A stretch of DNA of 64,000 nucleotides, from NCBI GenBank assembly GCA_044892505.1, contig CM097883.1, positions 122,202,001 through 122,266,000 on the forward strand. The letters run 5' to 3'. Of the stretch, positions 448 to 63,635 are shown one piece after another; position 1 is the stretch's first letter, and every line of letters starts with the position of its first letter. A program made the position numbers and the translations under genes. Source of the stretch: Schmidtea nova (taxonomy: Eukaryota). A model generated the notes under the pieces. That model did not search any database and was not told where the DNA came from. It was given only the letters and a program-made list of their open reading frames with translations.

Positions 448-3400
448 TTATGTGGTTGGAAGAAAACCAGTAGCATGAAAATGCCATGATTTGGCAGAGT
501 GCGAGATGTTACTAAGCGCACATGCTTTCAATAGATCGGGTATTTTCGAAATCTTTACACCCATTCTTTCAAGAACATCATTAGTTGCTGGTGGAACAGA
601 TCCTAAAGAACCAATTATACAAGTGTACAAGTCGACTGTAAAGTTTGGTTTAGCTGATTTGATTTTCAATTTTAGAGATTCATATTTTTCTATATTTCTT
701 TTATTGACATCATCAAAATTTGCTATTGTGTCAAAGGGACACTTTACGTCAACCATGAGAATTGTCTTTTTGTCATTGTTGGTAATAATTAAATCAACTC
801 GTTCTTTAGAGTCGCGAACTAACGAACATGCATGGTCCACTACAACAATCAATTTAGGGTCTTTTAAATGTTGAGTAATCTGTTCGAGACAGTCGTTGTG
901 ACGCGAAAGTGCAAGAATTTGATGAACTTTACAATTTTGTAGGACATGTAACAAAGTTTCTTCATCTTTATGACAACGTCGACAAATCCTCTCATCAGGT
1001 TTTCTATATGGTTTTGCGAAATTAGCTAGAGTGTTTGTTCTGGCACGATGGATGAATTTCCAAGAACCTTCACGCAATTTCCCTCTAAATATCGCTTTGT
1101 TTATGTCGGGAGATAAGCTATATGCTGATGAGCCACTTATGTTACTATTTTTCCATTTAGTAAAATAAGAGTCATAGAGAGCAAGGTGCAGAATCTTTGA
1201 GATGGCTTTTCGGTTTAAGCACTTCAATATAATTGTGCCATTTGTAATTGTTGTGAGACGAATGATGGGTTCGTTTTCCAACACTTCAAACGATATTGTT
1301 ATTTTGTGTGTCTTTTCAAAATGTTGAATTGCTGTGCGTGGTCGGTAAAATCGGGTTTTCTTTCCCGAATGTTGTTTAATCATGTTGGCTCCATTAATCC
1401 AACTGAAGCTTTCTTGTAGCGATGGGTTGTTAATTCCAAGTCGAGGCCCAGTTACAAACTTTAGGGAATCTATATTTATCTTTTTTGCCAAAGGACAGAT
1501 TGAAGTAAAAAGTCTAAAGAAATGACTGATGGTTTGTGTGTGATATTCGTCGAGTAGATCAATACAAGAAGCACCTCCATTTTCAATAGAGTTGTAAAAG
1601 TAGCTGATTTCAGAATGATCAGACAAATTCATCATTTTTCTTAAATACTTCCTAAGCTTTGTTGTACTATTACCGATATTAGCAGAAAGAGCCCTAATTT
1701 TAATTTCTCTTGTTCTAAATGGGAAAATTAGACGAGAGTGTATGAAAATCTTGTAAGCTTTCAGCTTTTGCCAGCCGTACAAGTCTGAGTCGGCAAGTTT
1801 CTTGGTATCACTAACCACCTTATCAAGGATGTCATAAGGACTTTGGTCAGGGTCTTCACCAATTGGTACTCCAAGATATTCATAAAATTCTTTATTTAAT
1901 AATTTCTTAATGATTGTATTATCGACAGTTATCTCACTTGTTGTATTGACACTTGGAAGTTGAATATATGCACATTTTTCTGGTCGATACTCAAAGCCTA
2001 TTTCAGATGCAGTGTCGTGTGCAATGTTTATTATCATTTGCAAGTCCTTAGCATTATTAGCAATAAGAGCAATATCGTCAGCATATGCAAGAACTTGAAT
2101 TGAAGATTCACCAAGTTTAAAAGGATTGACACTTGAAAGACTAACAGCTTGAAGAACAGGATTGATTGCTATTGCAAACAAGACCATTGAAAGAGGACAT
2201 CCTTGTTTAACTCCTTGTTTTATTGCAATGTTTGGTGTTACAATCGGACCACAGGTATAGAAGGAGCTTGTTTCAGTGTACAAAAGTTTCAAAATCTTAG
2301 TAAATTTCTCACTCATTCCAATATGACGCAAAATCGCCCACATGTAATCATGGGGTACACTACCAAAAGCGTCCTTAATGTCAAGAAATGCAATAGCAAC
2401 AGGTGTATTTTTACTGTATTTCGAGTGTTCAAGACAAGATGAAAGTATGGAATTGTGTTCAACACATCCATCATGAATAGAACCTCCTTTTTGTCCAACA
2501 TGAAGAACATTATTTAGATTCACCCACAGTGTCAAACGTCTAGCTAATATTGATGAGAATAATTTGTAAACAACAGATAACAAAGCAATTGGACGCCAAG
2601 AAGAGATTAAAGTGTATTTATCACCCTTGTCGTGTTTAGGAATCATTAACGTTTTGAAGGATTTCCAAACGTCTGGAATTGTATTTTCCCTAATGATTTT
2701 ATTAAATAAAAAGGTCAACAATTTACCCTCTGGATCAAGAATTGCAATGTCTTTATATTGAATTCCATCAAGCCCAGGAGAAGTATTATCAGCGTTTTTC
2801 AACTCATAGAGTACCTCTTTTTCACTGATAAAATTCAGATTTAGAATATTTAAAGATTTAATTGCAAATTTAAAAACTTTGTCATGATTCTTTAAAATAG
2901 GATCTCGATGACTAAAATTATCTATGTGATCTTTAATTGTTGGTCTATCCTTTATGTCGTCACTCATAAATATTTTATTTATTGTCTTTTTCATATTTTT
3001 ATTAAAAGATGACGCCAAGTTAGTATTAGATGGTTTGTCTTTATTTGTTTTGTTTCCTAAATATGGCCTACGTAATTTAGTTAAATTGACTTCTTCTTTA
3101 CTTTTGGCAATAGTAGTAATAATAAATTCCGTTATTTCGTTAACATTTGAATTTTGTAGATTTAACAAATGCTCATTTATCAAAGTTATACGTTGATTTA
3201 TTTTAAGTTTAACATGTTGCTTTTCAATTTGTAAAGGCGTTAATGGAATTTCCATACATTCTTTTACAGGTGGTAGGAGAGAATTTACAACATTACCAAT
3301 GTCATGCAAATTAATGTTTTCAAGAGACAAGTCTAGAGCGTAGTTCTTGATGAAAGCACAGGTGAGAACCCTGCTTACAAGACCAGAACCTCGAACATCA

Positions 3401-5010
3401 TGTGGACAATTACCAGTTTTGCTACAAAGACCAGGAGATTCTCGTATTTCATTGACTTTAGTTATTAAAGCTTTAGCAGTAGATAGGTAAGGAGCATTAT
3501 TCTCTAAAGTTGTTGGGTTTAATAAATAATGTTCATTATTGTTGTAGTCAATGACAAGCAGGATTTGTTGAGCTTGTGGTGGAGCAATAATTGAAAAAAC
3601 AACTTGTGCTTTAGTTAGACGATCAATATTTAAAAAATCATTCAAATATTGAGTGCAGTCATCTAATATTGCAGTGCAAATGGTATTGTTTAAAAATATG
3701 AACCTTTCACACAGATTTAAATTATTAAAATAATTTGTTAAAATATTATTCGTAATTTTAAAATTTAAAAAGTTTAGATTTAACGCCACTTGATCAAGTA
3801 TTTTGGAATGAATAGTGTCGAGCTTTTCAATTACTCTATCTCTATTGCAAATAGATCCTGAAATATATTGCTCCAAAAACATTATGAAAGTCGTGGCATG
3901 TTCTATTGGATCATCAGAAAACATTGAAGTTCGAAAAAGAGTATGACGATGTTGTTGAAATTTTATTGAATTTTCTAAGATAAATTTATTTAAATAATCT
4001 GTCATATTTTCTCCAATTCCCAGCAGTCTTTCAGTTATATTCGTAGAACGAACATCAAAAATATAACTGCAGCCAAGACTAATAGAACAAAGAAAGAGAC
4101 ACCAATAGTTATCATTTGGAACAATACTGATAATAATGCGAATATCCTTAAATTGTTTAAAAGTAACATTGTCTCTTATATAAATATTATTTTGATTAAT
4201 CAAATTAATTGTTAGTTCAGGAGAAAACACAAGCACACTTGGATCATTTTGAAACCACTTATTTAAGAGTGTAGAAACACAAGCTTTCTCGTTGTTAAGT
4301 TTTATTGGTTTAACAATGTTGTTATTTTGGTGAATATTCTTTTTAAGCGCCATTGCTTTATTTAAATTAATTTTATTAAGAAAATGATTCTTTGGCAATC
4401 CACCACCCGATAATTTGACATTGTGATTTGATTGACCTTTTTTAAAATCGTGGATCTGTTTTCTAATGTTCAAGATAAAATCATCAGGTAAACATTCCCA
4501 TTCTCCACTAACAATCATTGCGTATGCACAAATAAAAGGTCCACAATCAAAATCATTATTTTGATATTTGAGATTTTTAATTGGATTGTCAGTTATTTGG
4601 TTGTGACGTTTGAATTTATTATTTAATACTGAGTTTATTTTTAGAGCATTAACTTTGCTGTCTAATCTATTCCTATAATTAAAGATTGGATCAATAAAAT
4701 AAGAAGTCAAAGAAGTCTTGCAATAAACAAACAAGACCCAATGGCAATTATTAATATTGAGAGGACACAATATTACTTGGGATTCAAAAATTGTTTGAGG
4801 TATCGGAAAAATATCATCGGTCATATTTGAGCATAAAATACTTACAACAAAACATTTAATGAAAGCAAAACTAGGGTTGCTGATGTGACTTTCAAAGAAA
4901 TAGTCAATGTCATCATCAGTGAACCAACATTTTAAATCATGAGTGTCAAGAGTGCATTCTGCATCAGTCTCGTCAGACAATGCAGTACATGTAGAGGCTG
5001 ATGCAGGCAC
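448..5010 (-). CDS. ORF2: Ulp1/C48-like cysteine protease (plus two degenerate repeats), reverse transcriptase, CCHC zinc knuckle, restriction-like endonuclease
   Basis: WFTDDDI...CHW(H90)...IDP(D107)...YQNNDFDCG(C156); RT motifs SPGLDG, WRPIALL, FLDIKDAFGSV, GVKQGCPLS, YADD (2074-2085), YLG; CRRCHKDEETLLHVLQNC (931-984); RHND; VDLII...VDVKCPF...KY. The track start is GTG; the first ATG is codon 63. Confidence 0.95.
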   Translation of the reverse strand: MPASASTCTALSDETDAECTLDTHDLKCWFTDDDIDYFFESHISNPSFAFIKCFVVSILCSNMTDDIFPIPQTIFESQVILCPLNINNCHWVLFVYCKTSLTSYFIDPIFNYRNRLDSKVNALKINSVLNNKFKRHNQITDNPIKNLKYQNNDFDCGPFICAYAMIVSGEWECLPDDFILNIRKQIHDFKKGQSNHNVKLSGGGLPKNHFLNKINLNKAMALKKNIHQNNNIVKPIKLNNEKACVSTLLNKWFQNDPSVLVFSPELTINLINQNNIYIRDNVTFKQFKDIRIIISIVPNDNYWCLFLCSISLGCSYIFDVRSTNITERLLGIGENMTDYLNKFILENSIKFQQHRHTLFRTSMFSDDPIEHATTFIMFLEQYISGSICNRDRVIEKLDTIHSKILDQVALNLNFLNFKITNNILTNYFNNLNLCERFIFLNNTICTAILDDCTQYLNDFLNIDRLTKAQVVFSIIAPPQAQQILLVIDYNNNEHYLLNPTTLENNAPYLSTAKALITKVNEIRESPGLCSKTGNCPHDVRGSGLVSRVLTCAFIKNYALDLSLENINLHDIGNVVNSLLPPVKECMEIPLTPLQIEKQHVKLKINQRITLINEHLLNLQNSNVNEITEFIITTIAKSKEEVNLTKLRRPYLGNKTNKDKPSNTNLASSFNKNMKKTINKIFMSDDIKDRPTIKDHIDNFSHRDPILKNHDKVFKFAIKSLNILNLNFISEKEVLYELKNADNTSPGLDGIQYKDIAILDPEGKLLTFLFNKIIRENTIPDVWKSFKTLMIPKHDKGDKYTLISSWRPIALLSVVYKLFSSILARRLTLWVNLNNVLHVGQKGGSIHDGCVEHNSILSSCLEHSKYSKNTPVAIAFLDIKDAFGSVPHDYMWAILRHIGMSEKFTKILKLLYTETSSFYTCGPIVTPNIAIKQGVKQGCPLSMVLFAIAINPVLQAVSLSSVNPFKLGESSIQVLAYADDIALIANNAKDLQMIINIAHDTASEIGFEYRPEKCAYIQLPSVNTTSEITVDNTIIKKLLNKEFYEYLGVPIGEDPDQSPYDILDKVVSDTKKLADSDLYGWQKLKAYKIFIHSRLIFPFRTREIKIRALSANIGNSTTKLRKYLRKMMNLSDHSEISYFYNSIENGGASCIDLLDEYHTQTISHFFRLFTSICPLAKKINIDSLKFVTGPRLGINNPSLQESFSWINGANMIKQHSGKKTRFYRPRTAIQHFEKTHKITISFEVLENEPIIRLTTITNGTIILKCLNRKAISKILHLALYDSYFTKWKNSNISGSSAYSLSPDINKAIFRGKLREGSWKFIHRARTNTLANFAKPYRKPDERICRRCHKDEETLLHVLQNCKVHQILALSRHNDCLEQITQHLKDPKLIVVVDHACSLVRDSKERVDLIITNNDKKTILMVDVKCPFDTIANFDDVNKRNIEKYESLKLKIKSAKPNFTVDLYTCIIGSLGSVPPATNDVLERMGVKISKIPDLLKACALSNISHSAKSWHFHATGFLPTT

Positions 5011-5019
5011 ATCCCATCA
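4952..5019 (-). promoter_or_regulatory. Putative UGA readthrough signal: in-frame UGA followed 6 nt later by a stem-loop
   Basis: RNA GUGC-CUGCAUCAG...CUGAUGCAG-AAU-GCAC (9-bp perfect stem, 4959-4967 with 4998-5006, plus 4 bp beyond a 3-nt bulge); function is inferred. Confidence 0.5.
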
Positions 5020-7437
5020 TTTGGTGATCGCCTTTGATAGTTTATGGTCTTTTCTAGTAGTCATTTTTCTAATGTCTGTATTTTTAGGTGGTAAACAAGA
5101 TGTAGATTGCGCATCAATATCAGTTTCTAAGAGAGCCGATTTAATGATACCTGTATTATTTGAATCTACGACATTGGAGCTAACGCTAACATCTTTACAA
5201 GTGTCTTTAGAAATTTCAATAACATCAACAGATTCACTACTAGTCAGAAGATTTTCAAGAGAGTCAACAAGATCAAAGATAACTGAAGTCATTTCAGCAT
5301 TACAAATTTTACGACATTTAATTGGAACCTGAAAATAATCTATGTTCTTATTCAAAAATCTTTTCTTGTCTCTTATTATAAAGTATATCAGTCGTTTAGC
5401 CTTGATTATGTTAATGTCATCACACTCAGAACGGAATTCATTTATGTGTGAAAAGACAGAGTCTATTGCATTCATTTGGTTACTTTTTTGGGGAAACAAG
5501 TTATTAATTAATTTTAAAAATTTATTAATTCTTTTAATTGTATCTTGTGAAATTATATTTTTTAATTTATCAATCTCACAGGTCAGCATCCATTGTTTGA
5601 ATTTTATAAGTTTTTCCTGACAACTAATTCTAAAGTATGAAGACGAAGGTATTTTATCAACAAATTCAGAGCCCCACACTTCAAAAGAGTCAATAGTCAA
5701 GGAATCGCATTTAACACAGTCTATAACTGAATGAATAAGTAAGGAATTACGGAAATAATTGACAACGTAATTATCATAATTTATATTTCTTGAATATTTA
5801 ATATTACCTTTTAAGTTTAAATAATTAAGGTAATAAATTAATTCCACAATCTTAATAGGAGAAACGGGTAATGATAAAAGTTTATCTAAATGCTTATCAG
5901 TTCTAGACATTTCATGCAAATCAAATAACCCAATATTAAACATTATATCAGAGGCATTGCTAGAATCAGCTTCTTTCATCGCAGATTTACAATCAACAGT
6001 AAATTTACCATCTATAAATGAAATGTTCTTTGGAAAATCCTTATTTAATTTTAAACTATTAATTAAATTAATTAATTTATCAGGATTCTTTGAAATATTT
6101 TCAATAAAAATCATTTCTTTTAGTTCAGGGTAATCGAGATAGAGTTTATTTATTTGTGATCTTGTAAGATTATTTGAAATTAATTCAAAACCAGCATTAT
6201 GACAATTATCAGAAGTGGAAAAGTCTTTCATTATAAAGTCACCGTCAACATACCTTATTTCTGATTTAACAAGAAAGTCTGGCAATTGTTTTTGCAATTT
6301 TAACAAATCTAAGGCTTTATTAATAACGCTTCCTTTTTGAATTTCATTTTTAATAGAGACAGTTTCTGCCAATTTGCTTGAGAGAGCAAATAAAAATTTT
6401 TTTATTTCTAAAGGTGCAGGAATGAGGTTAGATGTAAAATTATCGGTAGCAATAATATCCGAAATAAATGTTTTTTTCTTATTTAGAATATTAAGGTTTT
6501 GAGGAAGTTGATTAGAGTTAGCCATTTTATTACTATTTAATTTAATCGAAGCACAAAAATTATTGTTTCGATAAAATATATGATCAAAATCCTCAACAAA
6601 CTTAAAATTTGAATTATTTATTAAAGAAAGTTCATAATTTATACGATCATATTTATTTACGGATTTCTTTAATTTTAATAGTTCTTTTAAACGTGGAAAA
6701 TTATTAATTAAATTGGTACGCTCATTTTTAGTTAAAATCCGGGGTAAAAAATCAAATTTAAATTCATCAATTTTAACATTTCTTTTCCCCTTATTTAGTG
6801 AAATTTTAACAGATTTTTTAATTGAAGTTTTACTAAAACTATCATCAGAAACTAGGTCTAAATTTTGACCGTCTGCTTCAGCGTAAGATTTATCAGAAGG
6901 TTTTGGTATATCATTTATATCATTAGAATTATTATTTAATTTTATATTACTATTTAATTTAGAAATATGATTATTTTTATTATTATTAAAATTATGAAAA
7001 TTAGGAGCATTATCAAAATTATTAACGTTTAAAGAATTCAAGATTCCAACAATCAAATCAAGTTTACCCTGAAAATCAACAAAGTTCTTCTCCAGAGCAA
7101 CCATTCGTTTGAAAAGTCCGTCATCAGAAGTTGGAGGAAAAGAAATTCCATCTGTTTTTTCAGGCAAAACATCCATTTTAGATTGTGTCTTGGGTAAATA
7201 ATTTGCCTGAAAAGCATTGAAATTTCTCTCAGGAATCTCCACTCGTCGGCCAGGTTCATCTTTAAGCATAGAGATTTCTTCTGATCTTTTCTTTAAAATA
7301 TCCATAAGAGATTGAGAAGATTGAATTTGTCTTCTCAGAAAATCAACGATTAGCATATTTTCATTTAGATTTGACTGATTACACAATAAATCATCAGAGT
7401 GACTCTGATTGGCCGATTGCATAATACTAGTGTGCAT
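5017..7437 (-). CDS. ORF1, 806 aa, function unknown (N-terminal coiled-coil-like and Asn-rich segments); in frame with ORF2
   Basis: ATG 32 nt from the element 5' end; open in copies 1-4; ends AAA TGA TGG GAT GTG in the ORF2 frame. Confidence 0.85.
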   Translation of the reverse strand: MHTSIMQSANQSHSDDLLCNQSNLNENMLIVDFLRRQIQSSQSLMDILKKRSEEISMLKDEPGRRVEIPERNFNAFQANYLPKTQSKMDVLPEKTDGISFPPTSDDGLFKRMVALEKNFVDFQGKLDLIVGILNSLNVNNFDNAPNFHNFNNNKNNHISKLNSNIKLNNNSNDINDIPKPSDKSYAEADGQNLDLVSDDSFSKTSIKKSVKISLNKGKRNVKIDEFKFDFLPRILTKNERTNLINNFPRLKELLKLKKSVNKYDRINYELSLINNSNFKFVEDFDHIFYRNNNFCASIKLNSNKMANSNQLPQNLNILNKKKTFISDIIATDNFTSNLIPAPLEIKKFLFALSSKLAETVSIKNEIQKGSVINKALDLLKLQKQLPDFLVKSEIRYVDGDFIMKDFSTSDNCHNAGFELISNNLTRSQINKLYLDYPELKEMIFIENISKNPDKLINLINSLKLNKDFPKNISFIDGKFTVDCKSAMKEADSSNASDIMFNIGLFDLHEMSRTDKHLDKLLSLPVSPIKIVELIYYLNYLNLKGNIKYSRNINYDNYVVNYFRNSLLIHSVIDCVKCDSLTIDSFEVWGSEFVDKIPSSSYFRISCQEKLIKFKQWMLTCEIDKLKNIISQDTIKRINKFLKLINNLFPQKSNQMNAIDSVFSHINEFRSECDDINIIKAKRLIYFIIRDKKRFLNKNIDYFQVPIKCRKICNAEMTSVIFDLVDSLENLLTSSESVDVIEISKDTCKDVSVSSNVVDSNNTGIIKSALLETDIDAQSTSCLPPKNTDIRKMTTRKDHKLSKAITK

Positions 7438-7469
7438 GTATGAGTAGGATTATTTTCTTTTTTCAACGA

Positions 7470-7508
7470 TTTACTAGACCAGTGCTCTAACCACTGAGCT
7501 ACGAAGGC
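7470..7508 (-). pseudogene. 5' half (nt 1-39) of interrupted tRNA-Thr(AGT); 7470-7478 is the 9-bp target duplication
   Basis: Identical to the corresponding part of the array tRNA and joined directly to the element 5' end. Confidence 0.93.
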
Positions 7509-7692: not shown

Positions 7693-7765
7693 TGCCTTCG
7701 GTGAGAATTGAACTCACGACCCCTGGTTTACTAGACCAGTGCTCTAACCACTGAGCTACGAAGGC
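7693..7765 (-). tRNA. TRNAT-AGU: tRNA-Thr(AGT), first full-length copy, representative of the array
   Basis: GCCTTCG TA GCTC AGTGGTTA GAGC A CTGGT CTAGTAA ACCAG GGGTC GTGAG TTCAATT CTCAC CGAAGGC A folds as a 73-nt cloverleaf; A box TAGCTCAGTGG, B box GTTCAATTC. Confidence 0.97.
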
Positions 7766-10700
7766 TTGAAATTTGAGAGATTTGGATATAAATCTCTAAA
7801 TTGGCATTCTGTACCGAAAAAATCAAAATCCAACCGATACACAAGTGTCGGACAATCAATAGGATTATTGTGTATAAATTTTTCTAATACGAGAAACAAA
7901 AACGGACAAGATTAATGTTGATGTCATAAAATTTATTTAGGAAAAAAGTTGCCTTCGGTGAGAATTGAACTCACGACCCCTGGTTTACTAGACCAGTGCT
8001 CTAACCACTGAGCTACGAAGGCTTGAAATTTGAGAGATTTGGATATAAATCTCTAAATTGGCATTCTGTACCGAAAAAATCAAAATCCAACCGATACACA
8101 AGTGTCGGACAATCAATAGGATTATTGTGTATAAATTTTTCTAATACGAGAAACAAAAACGGACAAGATTAATGTTGATGTCATAAAATTTATTTAGGAA
8201 AAAAGTTGCCTTCGGTGAGAATTGAACTCACGACCCCTGGTTTACTAGACCAGTGCTCTAACCACTGAGCTACGAAGGCTTGAAATTTGAGAGATTTGGA
8301 TATAAATCTCTAAATTGGCATTCTGTACCGAAAAAATCAAAATCCAACCGATACACAAGTGTCGGACAATCAATAGGATTATTGTGTATAAATTTTTCTA
8401 ATACGAGAAACAAAAACGGACAAGATTAATGTTGATGTCATAAAATTTATTTAGGAAAAAAGTTGCCTTCGGTGAGAATTGAACTCACGACCCCTGGTTT
8501 ACTAGACCAGTGCTCTAACCACTGAGCTACGAAGGCTTGAAATTTGAGAGATTTGGATATAAATCTCTAAATTGGCATTCTGTACCGAAAAAATCAAAAT
8601 CCAACCGATACACAAGTGTCGGACAATCAATAGGATTATTGTGTATAAATTTTTCTAATACGAGAAACAAAACGGACAAGATTAATGTTGATGTCATAAA
8701 ATTTATTTAGGAAAAAAGTTGCCTTCGGTGAGAATTGAACTCACGACCCCTGGTTTACTAGACCAGTGCTCTAACCACTGAGCTACGAAGGCTTGAAATT
8801 TGAGAGATTTGGATATAAATCTCTAAATTGGCATTCTGTACCGAAAAAATCAAAATCCAACCGATACACAAGTGTCGGACAATCAATAGGATTATTGTGT
8901 ATAAATTTTTCTAATACGAGAAACAAAAACGGACAAGATTAATGTTGATGTCATAAAATTTATTTAGGAAAAAAGTTGCCTTCGGTGAGAATTGAACTCA
9001 CGACCCCTGGTTTACTAGACCAGTGCTCTAACCACTGAGCTACGAAGGCTTGAAATTTGAGAGATTTGGATATAAATCTCTAAATTGGCATTCTGTACCG
9101 AAAAAATCAAAATCCAACCGATACACAAGTGTCGGACAATCAATAGGATTATTGTGTATAAATTTTTCTAATACGAGAAACAAAAACGGACAAGATTAAT
9201 GTTGATGTCATAAAATTTATTTAGGAAAAAAGTTGCCTTCGGTGAGAATTGAACTCACGACCCCTGGTTTACTAGACCAGTGCTCTAACCACTGAGCTAC
9301 GAAGGCTTGAAATTTGAGAGATTTGGATATAAATCTCTAAATTGGCATTCTGTACCGAAAAAATCAAAATCCAACCGATACACAAGTGTCGGACAATCAA
9401 TAGGATTATTGTGTATAAATTTTTCTAATACGAGAAACAAAAACGGACAAGATTAATGTTGATGTCATAAAATTTATTTAGGAAAAAAGTTGCCTTCGGT
9501 GAGAATTGAACTCACGACCCCTGGTTTACTAGACCAGTGCTCTAACCACTGAGCTACGAAGGCTTGAAATTTGAGAGATTTGGATATAAATCTCTAAATT
9601 GGCATTCTGTACCGAAAAAATCAAAATCCAACCGATACACAAGTGTCGGACAATCAATAGGATTATTGTGTATAAATTTTTCTAATACGAGAAACAAAAA
9701 CGGACAAGATTAATGTTGATGTCATAAAATTTATTTAGGAAAAAAGTTGCCTTCGGTGAGAATTGAACTCACGACCCCTGGTTTACTAGACCAGTGCTCT
9801 AACCACTGAGCTACGAAGGCTTGAAATTTGAGAGATTTGGATATAAATCTCTAAATTGGCATTCTGTACCGAAAAAATCAAAATCCAACCGATACACAAG
9901 TGTCGGACAATCAATAGGATTATTGTGTATAAATTTTTCTAATACGAGAAACAAAAACGGACAAGATTAATGTTGATGTCATAAAATTTATTTAGGAAAA
10001 AAGTTGCCTTCGGTGAGAATTGAACTCACGACCCCTGGTTTACTAGACCAGTGCTCTAACCACTGAGCTACGAAGGCTTGAAATTTGAGAGATTTGGATA
10101 TAAATCTCTAAATTGGCATTCTGTACCGAAAAAATCAAAATCCAACCGATACACAAGTGTCGGACAATCAATAGGATTATTGTGTATAAATTTTTCTAAT
10201 ACGAGAAACAAAAACGGACAAGATTAATGTTGATGTCATAAAATTTATTTAGGAAAAAAGTTGCCTTCGGTGAGAATTGAACTCACGACCCCTGGTTTAC
10301 TAGACCAGTGCTCTAACCACTGAGCTACGAAGGCTTGAAATTTGAGAGATTTGGATATAAATCTCTAAATTGGCATTCTGTACCGAAAAAATCAAAATCC
10401 AACCGATACACAAGTGTCGGACAATCAATAGGATTATTGTGTATAAATTTTTCTAATACGAGAAACAAAACGGACAAGATTAATGTTGATGTCATAAAAT
10501 TTATTTAGGAAAAAAGTTGCCTTCGGTGAGAATTGAACTCACGACCCCTGGTTTACTAGACCAGTGCTCTAACCACTGAGCTACGAAGGCTTGAAATTTG
10601 AGAGATTTGGATATAAATCTCTAAATTGGCATTCTGTACCGAAAAAATCAAAATCCAACCGATACACAAGTGTCGGACAATCAATAGGATTATTGTGTAT

Positions 10701-13700
10701 AAATTTTTCTAATACGAGAAACAAAAACGGACAAGATTAATGTTGATGTCATAAAATTTATTTAGGAAAAAAGTTGCCTTCGGTGAGAATTGAACTCACG
10801 ACCCCTGGTTTACTAGACCAGTGCTCTAACCACTGAGCTACGAAGGCTTGAAATTTGAGAGATTTGGATATAAATCTCTAAATTGGCATTCTGTACCGAA
10901 AAAATCAAAATCCAACCGATACACAAGTGTCGGACAATCAATAGGATTATTGTGTATAAATTTTTCTAATACGAGAAACAAAAACGGACAAGATTAATGT
11001 TGATGTCATAAAATTTATTTAGGAAAAAAGTTGCCTTCGGTGAGAATTGAACTCACGACCCCTGGTTTACTAGACCAGTGCTCTAACCACTGAGCTACGA
11101 AGGCTTGAAATTTGAGAGATTTGGATATAAATCTCTAAATTGGCATTCTGTACCGAAAAAATCAAAATCCAACCGATACACAAGTGTCGGACAATCAATA
11201 GGATTATTGTGTATAAATTTTTCTAATACGAGAAACAAAAACGGACAAGATTAATGTTGATGTCATAAAATTTATTTAGGAAAAAAGTTGCCTTCGGTGA
11301 GAATTGAACTCACGACCCCTGGTTTACTAGACCAGTGCTCTAACCACTGAGCTACGAAGGCTTGAAATTTGAGAGATTTGGATATAAATCTCTAAATTGG
11401 CATTCTGTACCGAAAAAATCAAAATCCAACCGATACACAAGTGTCGGACAATCAATAGGATTATTGTGTATAAATTTTTCTAATACGAGAAACAAAAACG
11501 GACAAGATTAATGTTGATGTCATAAAATTTATTTAGGAAAAAAGTTGCCTTCGGTGAGAATTGAACTCACGACCCCTGGTTTACTAGACCAGTGCTCTAA
11601 CCACTGAGCTACGAAGGCTTGAAATTTGAGAGATTTGGATATAAATCTCTAAATTGGCATTCTGTACCGAAAAAATCAAAATCCAACCGATACACAAGTG
11701 TCGGACAATCAATAGGATTATTGTGTATAAATTTTTCTAATACGAGAAACAAAAACGGACAAGATTAATGTTGATGTCATAAAATTTATTTAGGAAAAAA
11801 GTTGCCTTCGGTGAGAATTGAACTCACGACCCCTGGTTTACTAGACCAGTGCTCTAACCACTGAGCTACGAAGGCTTGAAATTTGAGAGATTTGGATATA
11901 AATCTCTAAATTGGCATTCTGTACCGAAAAAATCAAAATCCAACCGATACACAAGTGTCGGACAATCAATAGGATTATTGTGTATAAATTTTTCTAATAC
12001 GAGAAACAAAAACGGACAAGATTAATGTTGATGTCATAAAATTTATTTAGGAAAAAAGTTGCCTTCGGTGAGAATTGAACTCACGACCCCTGGTTTACTA
12101 GACCAGTGCTCTAACCACTGAGCTACGAAGGCTTGAAATTTGAGAGATTTGGATATAAATCTCTAAATTGGCATTCTGTACCGAAAAAATCAAAATCCAA
12201 CCGATACACAAGTGTCGGACAATCAATAGGATTATTGTGTATAAATTTTTCTAATACGAGAAACAAAAACGGACAAGATTAATGTTGATGTCATAAAATT
12301 TATTTAGGAAAAAAGTTGCCTTCGGTGAGAATTGAACTCACGACCCCTGGTTTACTAGACCAGTGCTCTAACCACTGAGCTACGAAGGCTTGAAATTTGA
12401 GAGATTTGGATATAAATCTCTAAATTGGCATTCTGTACCGAAAAAATCAAAATCCAACCGATACACAAGTGTCGGACAATCAATAGGATTATTGTGTATA
12501 AATTTTTCTAATACGAGAAACAAAAACGGACAAGATTAATGTTGATGTCATAAAATTTATTTAGGAAAAAAGTTGCCTTCGGTGAGAATTGAACTCACGA
12601 CCCCTGGTTTACTAGACCAGTGCTCTAACCACTGAGCTACGAAGGCTTGAAATTTGAGAGATTTGGATATAAATCTCTAAATTGGCATTCTGTACCGAAA
12701 AAATCAAAATCCAACCGATACACAAGTGTCGGACAATCAATAGGATTATTGTGTATAAATTTTTCTAATACGAGAAACAAAAACGGACAAGATTAATGTT
12801 GATGTCATAAAATTTATTTAGGAAAAAAGTTGCCTTCGGTGAGAATTGAACTCACGACCCCTGGTTTACTAGACCAGTGCTCTAACCACTGAGCTACGAA
12901 GGCTTGAAATTTGAGAGATTTGGATATAAATCTCTAAATTGGCATTCTGTACCGAAAAAATCAAAATCCAACCGATACACAAGTGTCGGACAATCAATAG
13001 GATTATTGTGTATAAATTTTTCTAATACGAGAAACAAAAACGGACAAGATTAATGTTGATGTCATAAAATTTATTTAGGAAAAAAGTTGCCTTCGGTGAG
13101 AATTGAACTCACGACCCCTGGTTTACTAGACCAGTGCTCTAACCACTGAGCTACGAAGGCTTGAAATTTGAGAGATTTGGATATAAATCTCTAAATTGGC
13201 ATTCTGTACCGAAAAAATCAAAATCCAACCGATACACAAGTGTCGGACAATCAATAGGATTATTGTGTATAAATTTTTCTAATACGAGAAACAAAAACGG
13301 ACAAGATTAATGTTGATGTCATAAAATTTATTTAGGAAAAAAGTTGCCTTCGGTGAGAATTGAACTCACGACCCCTGGTTTACTAGACCAGTGCTCTAAC
13401 CACTGAGCTACGAAGGCTTGAAATTTGAGAGATTTGGATATAAATCTCTAAATTGGCATTCTGTACCGAAAAAATCAAAATCCAACCGATACACAAGTGT
13501 CGGACAATCAATAGGATTATTGTGTATAAATTTTTCTAATACGAGAAACAAAAACGGACAAGATTAATGTTGATGTCATAAAATTTATTTAGGAAAAAAG
13601 TTGCCTTCGGTGAGAATTGAACTCACGACCCCTGGTTTACTAGACCAGTGCTCTAACCACTGAGCTACGAAGGCTTGAAATTTGAGAGATTTGGATATAA

Positions 13701-14885
13701 ATCTCTAAATTGGCATTCTGTACCGAAAAAATCAAAATCCAACCGATACACAAGTGTCGGACAATCAATAGGATTATTGTGTATAAATTTTTCTAATACG
13801 AGAAACAAAACGGACAAGATTAATGTTGATGTCATAAAATTTATTTAGGAAAAAAGTTGCCTTCGGTGAGAATTGAACTCACGACCCCTGGTTTACTAGA
13901 CCAGTGCTCTAACCACTGAGCTACGAAGGCTTGAAATTTGAGAGATTTGGATATAAATCTCTAAATTGGCATTCTGTACCGAAAAAATCAAAATCCAACC
14001 GATACACAAGTGTCGGACAATCAATAGGATTATTGTGTATAAATTTTTCTAATACGAGAAACAAAAACGGACAAGATTAATGTTGATGTCATAAAATTTA
14101 TTTAGGAAAAAAGTTGCCTTCGGTGAGAATTGAACTCACGACCCCTGGTTTACTAGACCAGTGCTCTAACCACTGAGCTACGAAGGCTTGAAATTTGAGA
14201 GATTTGGATATAAATCTCTAAATTGGCATTCTGTACCGAAAAAATCAAAATCCAACCGATACACAAGTGTCGGACAATCAATAGGATTATTGTGTATAAA
14301 TTTTTCTAATACGAGAAACAAAAACGGACAAGATTAATGTTGATGTCATAAAATTTATTTAGGAAAAAAGTTGCCTTCGGTGAGAATTGAACTCACGACC
14401 CCTGGTTTACTAGACCAGTGCTCTAACCACTGAGCTACGAAGGCTTGAAATTTGAGAGATTTGGATATAAATCTCTAAATTGGCATTCTGTACCGAAAAA
14501 ATCAAAATCCAACCGATACACAAGTGTCGGACAATCAATAGGATTATTGTGTATAAATTTTTCTAATACGAGAAACAAAAACGGACAAGATTAATGTTGA
14601 TGTCATAAAATTTATTTAGGAAAAAAGTTGCCTTCGGTGAGAATTGAACTCACGACCCCTGGTTTACTAGACCAGTGCTCTAACCACTGAGCTACGAAGG
14701 CTTGAAATTTGAGAGATTTGGATATAAATCTCTAAATTGGCATTCTGTACCGAAAAAATCAAAATCCAACCGATACACAAGTGTCGGACAATCAATAGGA
14801 TTATTGTGTATAAATTTTTCTAATACGAGAAACAAAAACGGACAAGATTAATGTTGATGTCATAAAATTTATTTAGGAAAAAAGT

Positions 14886-14958
14886 TGCCTTCAGTGAGAA
14901 TTGAACTCACGACCCCTGGTTTACTAGTCCATTGCTCTAACCACTGAGCTACGAAGGC
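14886..14958 (-). tRNA. TRNAT-AGU: Variant tRNA-Thr(AGT) (C27A, T31A, C66T by sequential count); same allele at 15143-15215 and 17713-17785
   Basis: + strand ttcagtgag and actagtccattg instead of ttcggtgag and actagaccagtg; two anticodon-stem pairs are broken, so it may be non-functional. Confidence 0.75.
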
Positions 14959-15399
14959 TTGAAATTTGAGAGATTTGGATATAAATCTCTAAATTGGCAT
15001 TCTGTACCGAAAAAATCAAAATCCAACCGATACACAAGTGTCGGACAATCAATAGGATTATTGTGTATAAATTTTTCTAATACGAGAAACAAAAACGGAC
15101 AAGATTAATGTTGATGTCATAAAATTTATTTAGGAAAAAAGTTGCCTTCAGTGAGAATTGAACTCACGACCCCTGGTTTACTAGTCCATTGCTCTAACCA
15201 CTGAGCTACGAAGGCTTGAAATTTGAGAGATTTGGATATAAATCTCTAAATTGGCATTCTGTACCGAAAAAATCAAAATCCAACCGATACACAAGTGTCG
15301 GACAATCAATAGGATTATTGTGTATAAATTTTTCTAATACGAGAAACAAAAACGGACAAGATTAATGTTGATGTCATAAAATTTATTTAGGAAAAAAGT

Positions 15400-15472
15400 T
15401 GCCTTCAGTGAGAATTGAACTCACGACCCCTGGTTTACTAGTCCAGTGCTCTAACCACTGAGCTACGAAGGC
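15400..15472 (-). tRNA. TRNAT-AGU: Variant tRNA-Thr(AGT) (T31A, C66T); same allele at 17970-18042
   Basis: + strand ttcagtgag and actagtccagtg. Confidence 0.75.
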
Positions 15473-18400
15473 TTGAAATTTGAGAGATTTGGATATAAAT
15501 CTCTAAATTGGCATTCTGTACCGAAAAAATCAAAATCCAACCGATACACAAGTGTCGGACAATCAATAGGATTATTGTGTATAAATTTTTCTAATACGAG
15601 AAACAAAAACGGACAAGATTAATGTTGATGTCATAAAATTTATTTAGGAAAAAAGTTGCCTTCGGTGAGAATTGAACTCACGACCCCTGGTTTACTAGAC
15701 CAGTGCTCTAACCACTGAGCTACGAAGGCTTGAAATTTGAGAGATTTGGATATAAATCTCTAAATTGGCATTCTGTACCGAAAAAATCAAAATCCAACCG
15801 ATACACAAGTGTCGGACAATCAATAGGATTATTGTGTATAAATTTTTCTAATACGAGAAACAAAAACGGACAAGATTAATGTTGATGTCATAAAATTTAT
15901 TTAGGAAAAAAGTTGCCTTCGGTGAGAATTGAACTCACGACCCCTGGTTTACTAGACCAGTGCTCTAACCACTGAGCTACGAAGGCTTGAAATTTGAGAG
16001 ATTTGGATATAAATCTCTAAATTGGCATTCTGTACCGAAAAAATCAAAATCCAACCGATACACAAGTGTCGGACAATCAATAGGATTATTGTGTATAAAT
16101 TTTTCTAATACGAGAAACAAAAACGGACAAGATTAATGTTGATGTCATAAAATTTATTTAGGAAAAAAGTTGCCTTCGGTGAGAATTGAACTCACGACCC
16201 CTGGTTTACTAGACCAGTGCTCTAACCACTGAGCTACGAAGGCTTGAAATTTGAGAGATTTGGATATAAATCTCTAAATTGGCATTCTGTACCGAAAAAA
16301 TCAAAATCCAACCGATACACAAGTGTCGGACAATCAATAGGATTATTGTGTATAAATTTTTCTAATACGAGAAACAAAAACGGACAAGATTAATGTTGAT
16401 GTCATAAAATTTATTTAGGAAAAAAGTTGCCTTCGGTGAGAATTGAACTCACGACCCCTGGTTTACTAGACCAGTGCTCTAACCACTGAGCTACGAAGGC
16501 TTGAAATTTGAGTGATTTGGATATAAATCTCTAAATTGGCATTCTGTACCGAAAAAATCAAAATCCAACCGATACACAAGTGTCGGACAATCAATAGGAT
16601 TATTGTGTATAAATTTTTCTAATACGAGAAACAAAAACGGACAAGATTAATGTTGATGTCATAAAATTTATTTAGGAAAAAAGTTGCCTTCGGTGAGAAT
16701 TGAACTCACGACCCCTGGTTTACTAGACCAGTGCTCTAACCACTGAGCTACGAAGGCTTGAAATTTGAGAGATTTGGATATAAATCTCTAAATTGGCATT
16801 CTGTACCGAAAAAATCAAAATCCAACCGATACACAAGTGTCGGACAATCAATAGGATTATTGTGTATAAATTTTTCTAATACGAGAAACAAAAACGGACA
16901 AGATTAATGTTGATGTCATAAAATTTATTTAGGAAAAAAGTTGCCTTCGGTGAGAATTGAACTCACGACCCCTGGTTTACTAGACCAGTGCTCTAACCAC
17001 TGAGCTACGAAGGCTTGAAATTTGAGAGATTTGGATATAAATCTCTAAATTGGCATTCTGTACCGAAAAAATCAAAATCCAACCGATACACAAGTGTCGG
17101 ACAATCAATAGGATTATTGTGTATAAATTTTTCTAATACGAGAAACAAAAACGGACAAGATTAATGTTGATGTCATAAAATTTATTTAGGAAAAAAGTTG
17201 CCTTCGGTGAGAATTGAACTCACGACCCCTGGTTTACTAGACCAGTGCTCTAACCACTGAGCTACGAAGGCTTGAAATTTGAGAGATTTGGATATAAATC
17301 TCTAAATTGGCATTCTGTACCGAAAAAATCAAAATCCAACCGATACACAAGTGTCGGACAATCAATAGGATTATTGTGTATAAATTTTTCTAATACGAGA
17401 AACAAAAACGGACAAGATTAATGTTGATGTCATAAAATTTATTTAGGAAAAAAGTTGCCTTCGGTGAGAATTGAACTCACGACCCCTGGTTTACTAGACC
17501 AGTGCTCTAACCACTGAGCTACGAAGGCTTGAAATTTGAGAGATTTGGATATAAATCTCTAAATTGGCATTCTGTACCGAAAAAATCAAAATCCAACCGA
17601 TACACAAGTGTCGGACAATCAATAGGATTATTGTGTATAAATTTTTCTAATACGAGAAACAAAAACGGACAAGATTAATGTTGATGTCATAAAATTTATT
17701 TAGGAAAAAAGTTGCCTTCAGTGAGAATTGAACTCACGACCCCTGGTTTACTAGTCCATTGCTCTAACCACTGAGCTACGAAGGCTTGAAATTTGAGAGA
17801 TTTGGATATAAATCTCTAAATTGGCATTCTGTACCGAAAAAATCAAAATCCAACCGATACACAAGTGTCGGACAATCAATAGGATTATTGTGTATAAATT
17901 TTTCTAATACGAGAAACAAAAACGGACAAGATTAATGTTGATGTCATAAAATTTATTTAGGAAAAAAGTTGCCTTCAGTGAGAATTGAACTCACGACCCC
18001 TGGTTTACTAGTCCAGTGCTCTAACCACTGAGCTACGAAGGCTTGAAATTTGAGAGATTTGGATATAAATCTCTAAATTGGCATTCTGTACCGAAAAAAT
18101 CAAAATCCAACCGATACACAAGTGTCGGACAATCAATAGGATTATTGTGTATAAATTTTTCTAATACGAGAAACAAAAACGGACAAGATTAATGTTGATG
18201 TCATAAAATTTATTTAGGAAAAAAGTTGCCTTCGGTGAGAATTGAACTCACGACCCCTGGTTTACTAGACCAGTGCTCTAACCACTGAGCTACGAAGGCT
18301 TGAAATTTGAGAGATTTGGATATAAATCTCTAAATTGGCATTCTGTACCGAAAAAATCAAAATCCAACCGATACACAAGTGTCGGACAATCAATAGGATT

Positions 18401-21053
18401 ATTGTGTATAAATTTTTCTAATACGAGAAACAAAAACGGACAAGATTAATGTTGATGTCATAAAATTTATTTAGGAAAAAAGTTGCCTTCGGTGAGAATT
18501 GAACTCACGACCCCTGGTTTACTAGACCAGTGCTCTAACCACTGAGCTACGAAGGCTTGAAATTTGAGAGATTTGGATATAAATCTCTAAATTGGCATTC
18601 TGTACCGAAAAAATCAAAATCCAACCGATACACAAGTGTCGGACAATCAATAGGATTATTGTGTATAAATTTTTCTAATACGAGAAACAAAAACGGACAA
18701 GATTAATGTTGATGTCATAAAATTTATTTAGGAAAAAAGTTGCCTTCGGTGAGAATTGAACTCACGACCCCTGGTTTACTAGACCAGTGCTCTAACCACT
18801 GAGCTACGAAGGCTTGAAATTTGAGAGATTTGGATATAAATCTCTAAATTGGCATTCTGTACCGAAAAAATCAAAATCCAACCGATACACAAGTGTCGGA
18901 CAATCAATAGGATTATTGTGTATAAATTTTTCTAATACGAGAAACAAAAACGGACAAGATTAATGTTGATGTCATAAAATTTATTTAGGAAAAAAGTTGC
19001 CTTCGGTGAGAATTGAACTCACGACCCCTGGTTTACTAGACCAGTGCTCTAACCACTGAGCTACGAAGGCTTGAAATTTGAGTGATTTGGATATAAATCT
19101 CTAAATTGGCATTCTGTACCGAAAAAATCAAAATCCAACCGATACACAAGTGTCGGACAATCAATAGGATTATTGTGTATAAATTTTTCTAATACGAGAA
19201 ACAAAAACGGACAAGATTAATGTTGATGTCATAAAATTTATTTAGGAAAAAAGTTGCCTTCGGTGAGAATTGAACTCACGACCCCTGGTTTACTAGACCA
19301 GTGCTCTAACCACTGAGCTACGAAGGCTTGAAATTTGAGAGATTTGGATATAAATCTCTAAATTGGCATTCTGTACCGAAAAAATCAAAATCCAACCGAT
19401 ACACAAGTGTCGGACAATCAATAGGATTATTGTGTATAAATTTTTCTAATACGAGAAACAAAAACGGACAAGATTAATGTTGATGTCATAAAATTTATTT
19501 AGGAAAAAAGTTGCCTTCGGTGAGAATTGAACTCACGACCCCTGGTTTACTAGACCAGTGCTCTAACCACTGAGCTACGAAGGCTTGAAATTTGAGAGAT
19601 TTGGATATAAATCTCTAAATTGGCATTCTGTACCGAAAAAATCAAAATCCAACCGATACACAAGTGTCGGACAATCAATAGGATTATTGTGTATAAATTT
19701 TTCTAATACGAGAAACAAAAACGGACAAGATTAATGTTGATGTCATAAAATTTATTTAGGAAAAAAGTTGCCTTCGGTGAGAATTGAACTCACGACCCCT
19801 GGTTTACTAGACCAGTGCTCTAACCACTGAGCTACGAAGGCTTGAAATTTGAGAGATTTGGATATAAATCTCTAAATTGGCATTCTGTACCGAAAAAATC
19901 AAAATCCAACCGATACACAAGTGTCGGACAATCAATAGGATTATTGTGTATAAATTTTTCTAATACGAGAAACAAAAACGGACAAGATTAATGTTGATGT
20001 CATAAAATTTATTTAGGAAAAAAGTTGCCTTCGGTGAGAATTGAACTCACGACCCCTGGTTTACTAGACCAGTGCTCTAACCACTGAGCTACGAAGGCTT
20101 GAAATTTGAGAGATTTGGATATAAATCTCTAAATTGGCATTCTGTACCGAAAAAATCAAAATCCAACCGATACACAAGTGTCGGACAATCAATAGGATTA
20201 TTGTGTATAAATTTTTCTAATACGAGAAACAAAAACGGACAAGATTAATGTTGATGTCATAAAATTTATTTAGGAAAAAAGTTGCCTTCGGTGAGAATTG
20301 AACTCACGACCCCTGGTTTACTAGACCAGTGCTCTAACCACTGAGCTACGAAGGCTTGAAATTTGAGAGATTTGGATATAAATCTCTAAATTGGCATTCT
20401 GTACCGAAAAAATCAAAATCCAACCGATACACAAGTGTCGGACAATCAATAGGATTATTGTGTATAAATTTTTCTAATACGAGAAACAAAAACGGACAAG
20501 ATTAATGTTGATGTCATAAAATTTATTTAGGAAAAAAGTTGCCTTCGGTGAGAATTGAACTCACGACCCCTGGTTTACTAGACCAGTGCTCTAACCACTG
20601 AGCTACGAAGGCTTGAAATTTGAGAGATTTGGATATAAATCTCTAAATTGGCATTCTGTACCGAAAAAATCAAAATCCAACCGATACACAAGTGTCGGAC
20701 AATCAATAGGATTATTGTGTATAAATTTTTCTAATACGAGAAACAAAAACGGACAAGATTAATGTTGATGTCATAAAATTTATTTAGGAAAAAAGTTGCC
20801 TTCGGTGAGAATTGAACTCACGACCCCTGGTTTACTAGACCAGTGCTCTAACCACTGAGCTACGAAGGCTTGAAATTTGAGAGATTTGGATATAAATCTC
20901 TAAATTGGCATTCTGTACCGAAAAAATCAAAATCCAACCGATACACAAGTGTCGGACAATCAATAGGATTATTGTGTATAAATTTTTCTAATACGAGAAA
21001 CAAAAACGGACAAGATTAATGTTGATGTCATAAAATTTATTTAGGAAAAAAGT

Positions 21054-21126
21054 TGCCTTCGGTGAGAATTGAACTCACGACCCCTGGTTTACTAGACCAG
21101 TGCTCTAACCACTGAGCTACGAAGGC
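21054..21126 (-). tRNA. TRNAT-AGU: tRNA-Thr(AGT), last full-length copy of the array
   Basis: Identical to 7693-7765. Confidence 0.96.
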
Positions 21127-21353: not shown

Positions 21354-21872
21354 TTAAACATTTATTATGATAACAAATTTTAGATTTTACACAAATGAGA
21401 CGGTTCAACTTGGAACCTGCCATTCAAATCAATAATGTTTTAATGAGACAATTTTCAGTTTTTGTAATATCACATTGCGAAAATATCTGTCTCAAGAAAT
21501 CAAATCTCTTTGAATCTTCTCTGGCATTCTCTGATTTTCATCGGGATATCATTCCGGCTTTGCGATTTCAAGTTGAGAATAGTATCAAAATTGAAGTTCT
21601 CGCAGCTGCATTTTCTTAGCATTTAATAATCAATCAGCAGAAATATTGAATTCTCTGATTTACAGGACAGTTGAATACAATATGATCTCGATGCTAGATA
21701 TTATTTCAAATGCTTTTTTTCTAAATTAAAAATAGAGCAATTCTCTGAATAAAGATTAGGATAATAAACTTTAATGACTTTCAAGGTAGTCAAGAAATGA
21801 CTAACGGAAAAATGAATTACACAAAACAGAAAAATAATGATAATGCTCCCAATTTCGCAATAGAAATAATTT

Positions 21873-26435: not shown

Positions 26436-26441
26436 ATCCCA

Positions 26442-28862: not shown

Positions 28863-28894
28863 GATTGAGTAGAATTATTTTCCTTTTTCAACGA

Positions 28895-29160
28895 TTTACT
28901 AGACCAGTGCTCTAACCACTGAGCTACGAAGGCTTGAAATTTGAGAGATTTGGATATAAATCTCTAAATTGGCATTCTGTACCGAAAAAATCAAAATCCA
29001 ACCGATACACAAGTGTCGGACAATCAATAGGATTATTGTGTATAAATTTTTCTAATACGAGAAACAAAAACGGACAAGATTAATGTTGATGTCATAAAAT
29101 TTATTTAGGAAAAAAGTTGCCTTCGGTGAGAATTGAACTCACGACCCCTGGTTTACTAGA
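28895..29160 (-). repeat. Single array spacer between copies 2 and 3, carrying two tRNA halves; same 266-bp block at 36663-36928 and 44432-44697
   Basis: One 257-bp unit plus the 9-bp TSD, beginning and ending with tttactaga. Confidence 0.93.
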
Positions 29161-29641
29161 TTAAACATTTATTATGATAACAAATTTTAGATTTTACACA
29201 AATGAGACGGTTCAACTTGGAACCTGCCATTCAAATCAATAATGTTTTAATGAGACAATTTTCAGTTTTTGTAATATCACATTGCGAAAATATCTGTCTC
29301 AAGAAATCAAATCTCTTTGAATCTTCTCTGGCATTCTCTGATTTTCATCGGGATATCATTCCGGCTTTGCGATTTCAAGTTGAGAATAGTATCAAAATTG
29401 AAGTTCTCGCAGCTGCATTTTTCTGATTTACAGGACAGTTGAATACAATATGATCTCGATGCTAGATATTATTTCAAATGCTTTTTTTCTAAATTAAAAA
29501 TAGAGCAATTCTCTGAATAAAGATTAGGATAATAAACTTTAATGACTTTCAAGGTAGTCAAGAAATGACTAACGGAAAAAATGAATTACACAAAACAGAA
29601 AAATAATGGTAATGCTCCTAATTTCGCAATAAAAATAATTT

Positions 29642-34203: not shown

Positions 34204-34209
34204 ATCCCA

Positions 34210-41972: not shown

Positions 41973-41978
41973 ATCCCA

Positions 41979-44399: not shown

Positions 44400-44697
44400 G
44401 ATTGAGTAGAATTATTTTCCTTTTTCAACGATTTACTAGACCAGTGCTCTAACCACTGAGCTACGAAGGCTTGAAATTTGAGAGATTTGGATATAAATCT
44501 CTAAATTGGCATTCTGTACCGAAAAAATCAAAATCCAACCGATACACAAGTGTCGGACAATCAATAGGATTATTGTGTATAAATTTTTCTAATACGAGAA
44601 ACAAAAACGGACAAGATTAATGTTGATGTCATAAAATTTATTTAGGAAAAAAGTTGCCTTCGGTGAGAATTGAACTCACGACCCCTGGTTTACTAGA

Positions 44698-46041: not shown

Positions 46042-46063
46042 GAAACAATTTTTAGAAGAAACA

Positions 46064-46938: not shown

Positions 46939-46941
46939 GCT

Positions 46942-63628: not shown

Positions 63629-63635
63629 AATGGCA

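Follow-up and report, generated by a model that had tools for sequence, protein, structure and literature searches.

A retrotransposon in the tRNA-Thr genes of Schmidtea nova encodes an Ulp1-like protease, two dead copies of it and a candidate Gly-Gly self-cleavage site

What could an Ulp1-like protease be doing in front of the reverse transcriptase (RT) of a retrotransposon, and why would it be followed by two copies of itself? The question is raised by a 64,000-nucleotide stretch of Schmidtea nova DNA (assembly GCA_044892505.1, contig CM097883.1, positions 122,202,001 to 122,266,000; hereafter the window), in which a site-specific retrotransposon without long terminal repeats (non-LTR), of the restriction-like endonuclease (RLE) type, with a unit size of 7.5 kb, is inserted on the minus strand into an array of tRNA-Thr genes. 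An original prediction made from the bare letters of the DNA had proposed that its second open reading frame (ORF2) begins with three tandem Ulp1-like domains, of which only the first is catalytic, and that a candidate LSGG/G self-cleavage site follows this first domain. Our analysis bears out the three domains by profile alignment, predicted topology and alignment columns, and it finds the position of the Gly-Gly conserved across divergent relatives. We think it probable that domain 1 is built to cut itself off the RT-endonuclease after G205, the RT-endonuclease keeping the dead copies. Coordinates are collected in Table 1.

Domain 1 is a C48 (clan CE) protease with predicted catalysis, as judged from its Pfam score, its His-Asp-Gln-Cys order and its Ulp1/SENP fold. 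In the ORF2 protein (P0001) Pfam recognises Peptidase_C48 in domain 1 only (E-value 4.9e-8, 33.5 bits against a cut-off of 20.7); domain 1 scanned alone against PF02902 scores 39.6 bits, and phmmer matches it to yeast Ulp1 (1euv, E-value 0.0028). We modelled the protein with AlphaFold2 from a 26-row alignment (mean predicted local distance difference test, pLDDT, 85; predicted template modelling score 0.45) and set aside a single-sequence model (pLDDT 31). The closest structure to domain 1 (model residues 1-175) is NEDP1 (Z 18.4, root-mean-square deviation 2.8, 167 residues aligned), followed by SENP5 (Z 17.7) and Ulp1 (Z 17.5), while the viral proteases pS273R of African swine fever virus (ASFV), AVP of adenovirus and I7L of poxvirus reach Z 10.7, 10.3 and 11.0. 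Like the cellular Ulp1/SENP/NEDP1 enzymes, which are its best structural matches (Z 15-18), domain 1 has the catalytic order His-Asp-Gln-Cys and both tryptophans of the Gly-Gly tunnel: W31, D34 and W93 align with residues in the WLND and HW motifs of Ulp1. It differs from them in sequence (16-21% identity), and none of the solved structures listed has a tandem of dead copies. The catalytic residues are H92 (4741-4743), D109 (4690-4692), Q152 (4561-4563) and C158 (4543-4545), and wherever the 14 aligned rows cover them they do not vary (H 12/12, D 13/13, Q 14/14, C 14/14). The four residues had been picked correctly before under the numbers H90/D107/Q150/C156, which were counted from GTG codon 3 and are 2 too low for the stop-to-stop frame.

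Domains 2 and 3 are, by sequence and modelling, divergent copies of domain 1 without its catalytic residues. Blocks 2 and 3 scanned alone against Pfam matched no family, and homology was tested by hhalign of clade alignments, for which we aligned 14 proteins with the three-block layout. Domain 1 aligned with domain 2 at an E-value of 9.7e-5 (107 columns, probability 58%) and with domain 3 at 3.2e-6 (154 columns, 88%), and domains 2 and 3 aligned with each other at 3.3e-7 (107 columns, 93%); controls against other ORF2 segments gave 0.03 or more in 20/20 comparisons. Domain 2 is the weakest of the three, since its alignment to domain 1 covers the first ~110 residues only. Five other relatives have a single, less decayed dead copy; Pfam detects two C48 stretches in three of them, and in one more it detects a different clan-CE family. 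The single copy links the whole set, with E-values of 5e-16 to domain 1, 1.9e-13 to domain 3 and 1.5e-9 to domain 2.

The AlphaFold2 model contains three domains with an identical order of helices and strands, and the expectation that blocks 2 and 3 would both model as the C48 fold thus holds for topology. In structural comparison domain 3 (model residues 393-560) has the clan-CE deubiquitinase domain of SdeA as its best row, at a middling Z of 6.8 (root-mean-square deviation 3.7, 134 aligned); domain 2, in a search with the whole model in which domain 1 takes each chain's single best alignment, drew unrelated folds only, at Z under 5. An Atlas search with residues 240-585 alone returned C48-bearing clusters (0.93, with the family on 16-17% of members), which we treat as a lead only.

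Judged by sequence, neither copy has the catalytic His and Cys of an active C48 protease. In domain 2 the original description stands, with Tyr at the His position and no catalytic Cys, and His occurs there in 0/14 rows. In domain 3 the Cys position holds Ser (10/12) or Asn (2/12); the His position is Gln here, His in 9/13 rows and Leu, Lys or Tyr in three others; the Asp position is Asn here and Asn or Asp in 12/13; and the oxyanion Gln position is variable. Block 3 had been described as keeping only a hydrophobic pattern and as ending at 3376. This underrates it, because it runs to about residue 580 (3277), and among rows with a residue at the position it conserves N418 (13/13), P501 (13/14), S544-G545 (12/12) and C553 (12/12). 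Over 11 full-length members, pairwise identity averages 33% in domain 1, 24% in domain 2, 34% in domain 3 and 54% in the RT, and domain 3, level with domain 1, is therefore under real constraint. Two relatives, P0008 and P0010, have domains 1 and 3 only. In the RT tree P0008 lies inside the three-domain clade (support 99 for the clade and 93 for the subgroup, by a quick method with midpoint root on 53 rows, among which no named NeSL, Utopia, R5 or LIN reference figures), and this nesting suggests that it lost domain 2.

The candidate site lies in the linker behind domain 1, where pLDDT is under 50 at model residues 176-218 (residues 198-240); because the linker is predicted to be disordered, the site is predicted to be accessible. 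LSGGG is the only [LMI]xGG in ORF1 and ORF2 together, as had been claimed for the polyprotein. The longer motif VKLSGGG is also real and spans 4399-4419, not 4399-4413, an interval that holds LSGGG only. Among proteins with an active domain and a dead domain behind it, GG is present in 18/22 and GxG in the other 4/22, between +38 and +52 as counted from the catalytic Cys. We counted in a window of +35..+56 from that Cys, which was chosen after the motif had been seen, left out proteins that end near it or have no matched Cys, and took the second of two GxG in P0008. In the same window single-Ulp1-domain RT relatives have GG in 1/14 and GG or GxG in 2/14, and among the other 22-residue windows in the 22 proteins, 30/1014 contain GG and 53/1014 contain GG or GxG. 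The spacing of the motif is fixed relative to domain 1 and not to domain 2, the linker being 19-50 residues long in relatives. Where it is long and basic, in the element and its four closest relatives, its net charge is +5 to +15 (+9 here).

The residues around the glycines are less uniform. At the fourth position before the cut (P4), which was not used to anchor the sites, 26 sites (the 22 proteins and four fragments showing the motif) have Leu 11 times, Ile 3, Tyr 3, Asn or Gln 3, and Thr, Arg, Lys or Asp 6, making P4 hydrophobic in 17/26 against 27% in the linkers. The adenovirus protease cuts at (M/I/L)XGG/X or (M/I/L)XGX/G and tolerates Gln or Asn at P4, according to the available text of PMC4246237. 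LSGG/G fits both forms, and 14/26 sites fit strictly in the anchored register. An invariant LxGG was considered and dropped, as the three closest relatives read THGGG, NSGGG and RKGGG. Between the site and the RT there is no further GG in 11/14 full-length proteins and ORF1 contains none, and the rule therefore predicts a single cut. Separately, three single-Ulp1 proteins with long N-termini (P0076, P0098 and P0101) have LSGG, LKAGG and LRGGG upstream of the protease, adjoining zinc-finger regions; these may be candidate cleavage sites on the protease's other side.

How might such a site be used? We propose that the protease would make a single cut in its own polyprotein, after the Gly-Gly that lies in the disordered linker, in the manner of viral clan-CE proteases. 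The cut would free a protease of ~200 residues, or an ORF1-protease fusion if the TGA that ends ORF1 is read through, from a 1317-residue product made of domains 2 and 3, RT and endonuclease. On this product the dead copies would remain as non-catalytic binding or scaffold modules, in the place where related elements have zinc fingers. Cleavage in trans appears more likely than in cis, because the tether from the catalytic Cys is as short as 38 residues in one relative. The new N-terminus, formed by the basic linker, could bear a nuclear or nucleic-acid-binding signal.

Self-cleavage agrees with the invariance of the catalytic tetrad and with the presence of GG or GxG in 22/22 proteins with a dead domain, as opposed to 2/14 without one. 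The motif also persists while the linker varies between 19 and 50 residues and RT identity averages 54%. Every exception to GG is GxG, the second adenovirus consensus form, and the match to both forms is the best argument that the motif is a substrate sequence and not a hinge. Several points weigh on the other side. The proteins are kin, such that their counts are not independent, and forms with a dead domain may have arisen once or twice; the counting window was picked with the motif in sight; and Thr, Arg, Lys or Asp at P4 in 6/26 sites includes two of the three relatives nearest to the element. Conservation as a hinge is another reason why glycines may persist at a domain boundary, and the closest folds are those of cellular Ulp1, SENP and NEDP1. 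These enzymes require a folded ubiquitin-like domain before the Gly-Gly, and the site here has no such domain.

One alternative is that no cut takes place: the Gly-Gly would be a conserved hinge or cap, and domain 1 a host isopeptidase for SUMO, NEDD8 or ubiquitin that is tethered to the RT and relieves silencing at the target array. We regard this as rather unlikely. It draws on the likeness to cellular ubiquitin-like (Ubl) proteases, on the retention of W31, D34 and W93, and on the single-domain relatives, where the lack of GG in 13/14 implies that the protease is kept there without self-cleavage. A host-directed isopeptidase role for domain 1 is plausible in itself, because SUMO is needed to repress retrotransposon-interrupted ribosomal DNA units in Drosophila (available text of PMC7676866), and a protease freed by self-cleavage may likewise act on host SUMO, NEDD8 or ubiquitin conjugates. 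The same text reports, however, that Ulp1 knockdown raised R1/R2 expression in Drosophila (PMC7676866), and more isopeptidase therefore need not derepress. A hinge also leaves unexplained the excess of hydrophobic P4 residues and the alternation of GG with GxG, and it sits poorly with a motif that lies in a disordered linker of variable length and keeps its distance from domain 1, not from domain 2.

A different role has been suggested for the dead domains, namely that they are SUMO-binding modules. As traps for SUMO or another Ubl, they would anchor the RT-endonuclease at tRNA genes through SUMOylated chromatin, which is compatible with self-cleavage and which we consider unlikely. Catalytically dead Ulp1 does trap SUMO conjugates, the fold is kept, and domain 3 is as constrained as domain 1. 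ORF2 has no N-terminal zinc fingers for targeting, and the net charge of domain 3, neutral to acidic (0 to -11), speaks against plain DNA binding. Yet the equivalents of W31, D34 and W93 are missing or variable in both blocks: the W31 position is Arg, Lys, Asn or Gln in domain 3 and has no alignment in domain 2, and the W93 position is Trp in 6/14 domain 2 rows and 0/13 domain 3 rows. The Trp and Asp residues common to domain 1 and Ulp1 have a role in SUMO binding, and since the dead copies are without them a SUMO trap is not favoured. Domain 2 is, moreover, dispensable in P0008 and P0010, and domain 3 has a signature that differs (N418, N500-P501, S544-G545, S548, C553).

It is improbable, in our view, that the Gly-Gly peptide is an auto-inhibitory pseudo-substrate lying in the active site of domain 1, or that a host Ubl protease cuts it. 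On either view, a sequence that looks like a substrate would stand at a constant distance from domain 1 without yielding a product. However, the residues flanking the bond are a normal scissile Gly-Gly or Gly-X with nothing to block cleavage, host SENP and USP enzymes need a folded Ubl domain, and the motif adjoins an invariant active site in every case counted. That domain 3 is a re-tooled Ser-His-Asn hydrolase, as its frequent Ser, His and Asn or Asp might suggest, is very improbable given Gln here and Leu, Lys or Tyr in three other rows at the His position, Asn for Ser in two rows and a variable oxyanion position.

Whether such a cut would free the protease alone or an ORF1-protease fusion depends on how ORF2 is translated. 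ORF1 matched no Pfam family, gave no usable Atlas match and shows no zinc finger; a two-ORF layout is also that of R5. The TGA between ORF1 and ORF2, in frame as the idea of a readthrough polyprotein demands, is present in 4/4 full copies of the element and in the main contig of run X1. The first in-frame ATG of ORF2 is M65, and because a start there would remove the conserved first helix, ORF2 needs either readthrough or a non-AUG start. Readthrough of the TGA is possible, and initiation at GTG codon 3 remains the alternative: relatives in the database mostly start with MPA where this codon lies, these starts having been assigned by gene callers. A degenerate relative in the window, 75% identical overall, keeps nearly all letters of the ORF1/ORF2 junction and has GTT instead of GTG, which leans towards readthrough.

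A predicted RNA hairpin follows the TGA, with 9 uninterrupted pairs and 8 more (-26 kcal/mol; z -1.77, which is marginal, 11/200 shuffles being as good). Its arms encode PAS and DAE. Compared among relatives by eye and at the protein level only, Ser is accompanied by Asp in P0001, P0003, P0004 and P0066, and Pro by Gly in P0009, P0068, P0069 and P0070, the combinations that pairing of bases in the hairpin would require; the fit is poorer for two PAT/GAE cases, and in five rows there is no clear match. This covariation is hinting at a conserved RNA signal for recoding or reinitiation. A changed genetic code, as an explanation of the TGA and of a TAA at ORF2 codon 355 in other copies, was considered and rejected: ORF2 of copy 1 has no internal stop and ends in TAA, and the longest contig of run X1 over the region, with 11 differences in all, has none at codon 355 or at the TGA.

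It is tempting to go further and picture a retrovirus-like mode of expression, in which hairpin-stimulated UGA readthrough of ORF1 would yield a protease-RT-endonuclease polyprotein, an adenovirus-type Gly-Gly site would be where a captured SUMO protease matures it, and zinc fingers would have given way to the dead duplicates, which would now steer the RT-endonuclease to tRNA genes. As a whole this scenario is doubtful, and we offer it as speculation.

The element belongs to the RLE-type (R2 group) retrotransposons, with an RT followed by a CCHC knuckle and a restriction-like endonuclease and with site-specific insertion in a multicopy gene. The window holds four near-complete copies and one truncated copy, 98-99% identical by blastn, and every full copy interrupts a tRNA gene at its anticodon loop, where 9 bp of the target are duplicated. 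The 5' end of copy 1 is at 7469, with a leader of only ~30 nucleotides 5' of ORF1. The 3' end of the element is …ATAATAAATGTTTAA, which by eye is like the 3' end of LIN25_SM (S6 in the available part of PMC4640811).

Table 1. Features of the element and its target in the window.
Feature	Position	Strand	Evidence
ORF2, 1522 aa stop to stop (protein P0001): Ulp1 x3, RT, CCHC knuckle, restriction-like endonuclease	448..5016	-	
Domain 1 (ORF2 aa 29-192), Ulp1/C48-fold cysteine protease	4441..4932	-	Pfam PF02902, phmmer, model
LSGGG (aa 202-206), candidate site of self-cleavage, with the cut predicted after G205	4399..4413	-	
Linker (aa 193-242), predicted disordered	4291..4440	-	pLDDT, lengths, charges
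Domain 2 (aa 243-411), degenerate Ulp1-fold copy	3784..4290	-	hhalign, predicted topology
Domain 3 (aa 412-580), dead Ulp1-fold copy	3277..3783	-	hhalign, model, alignment columns
Reverse transcriptase in ORF2	1864-2643	-	RVT_1 E 7.6e-28
CCHC knuckle in ORF2	about 931-984	-	motif CRRC..H..C and alignment
Restriction-like endonuclease in ORF2	about 472-819	-	motif D..DVK and alignment
ORF1/ORF2 junction, TGA then predicted RNA hairpin; candidate recoding or reinitiation signal	4948..5019	-	
ORF1, 810 aa between stops; its closing TGA (5017-5019) shares the frame of ORF2	5017..7449	-	
9-bp target-site duplication in tRNA-Thr(AGT) anticodon loop, tRNA nt 31-39	7470..7478	-	5'/3' junctions of copies
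Host target array, 53 intact tRNA-Thr(AGT) genes, ~257-bp spacing	7693..21126	-	ARAGORN
Three further near-identical element copies (99% identity), one tRNA-Thr unit each	21354..44442	-	blastn, translations, codon comparison

Copies 2-4 have a common TAA at ORF2 codon 355, inside domain 2, and in copy 3 the reading frame also shifts near 31700. Seven substitutions of copies 3-4 in this region recur in the main contig of run X1, which nevertheless has no stop at codon 355. A deleted copy at 44773-46154 on the minus strand has lost sequence at both the 5' and 3' sides; it starts near domain 3, and its early RT is joined to the 3' untranslated end. Degenerate sequences related to the element lie at 63308-63630 and 51388-52005, one being the copy that keeps the junction and the other an ORF1 fragment, 42% identical, on the plus strand. 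The remaining pieces at 46283-48472, 54599-57828, 58346-60580 and 61118-61507 we take, on their motifs, to be broken hAT-like transposase pieces in two copies, Polinton-type DNA-polymerase-like fragments, a transposase-like ORF of 744 residues whose GC content is higher, and an ORF resembling a BED finger.

The comparisons above draw on 3 full-length relatives from a search with the N-terminal region, 62 from a representative search and the RT search, in which the 120 of 128 matches listed include nematode and arthropod proteins without element names. A further search restricted to proteins of 2698-5000 residues found no long relative. A metagenome scan gave 4 loci, three of them with stand-alone Ulp1-like genes and none with an RT-linked copy.

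An Ulp1-like domain in an RLE element is not new in itself. NeSL and Utopia-1_TSP, nematode elements that target spliced-leader or U2 genes, have one such domain, and the available text of PMC4640811 gives the domains of NeSL and Utopia no substrate and mentions neither dead repeats nor a cleavage site. The element described here differs in its three tandem domains, two of them dead, its conserved GG site, its separate ORF1 and its tRNA-Thr target. In the choice of tRNA genes it resembles the planarian elements LIN15_SM (tRNA-Arg) and LIN25_SM (tRNA-Glu) of the R5/LIN lineage of flatworms, NeSL-related RLE elements; tRNA-Thr is not among the targets named in the available text (PMC4640811). 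Unlike them, it inserts in tRNA-Thr(AGT), at the anticodon loop, and duplicates 9 bp. The viral enzymes ASFV pS273R, adenovirus AVP and poxvirus I7L have the fold of domain 1 and cut at Gly-Gly-X or at the two adenovirus forms given above, and ASFV S273R, a relative of SUMO proteases, processes polyproteins at Gly-Gly-X (available texts of PMC4584293 and PMC4246237). Those proteases are separate proteins that mature virion proteins, whereas the element's protease shares one chain with its putative site, and the product would be an RT-endonuclease. The open literature contained no account, for retrotransposons, of tandem dead Ulp1 domains or of a GG site; Repbase entries and papers behind subscription, among them the first descriptions of NeSL-1 and R5, lay outside this search and may bear on the point.

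The element thus provides its own candidate substrate, one conserved motif that matches the chemistry read by viral clan-CE proteases. Maturation of an RT by proteolysis is usually linked to LTR elements and retroviruses; if our reading is true, an element of the LINE (long interspersed nuclear element) type would mature its RT in this way as well. The tandem also shows that a protease was duplicated and that the duplicates then lost catalysis, related lineages having one or two such dead copies, and these may represent a new targeting module for tRNA-specific insertion.

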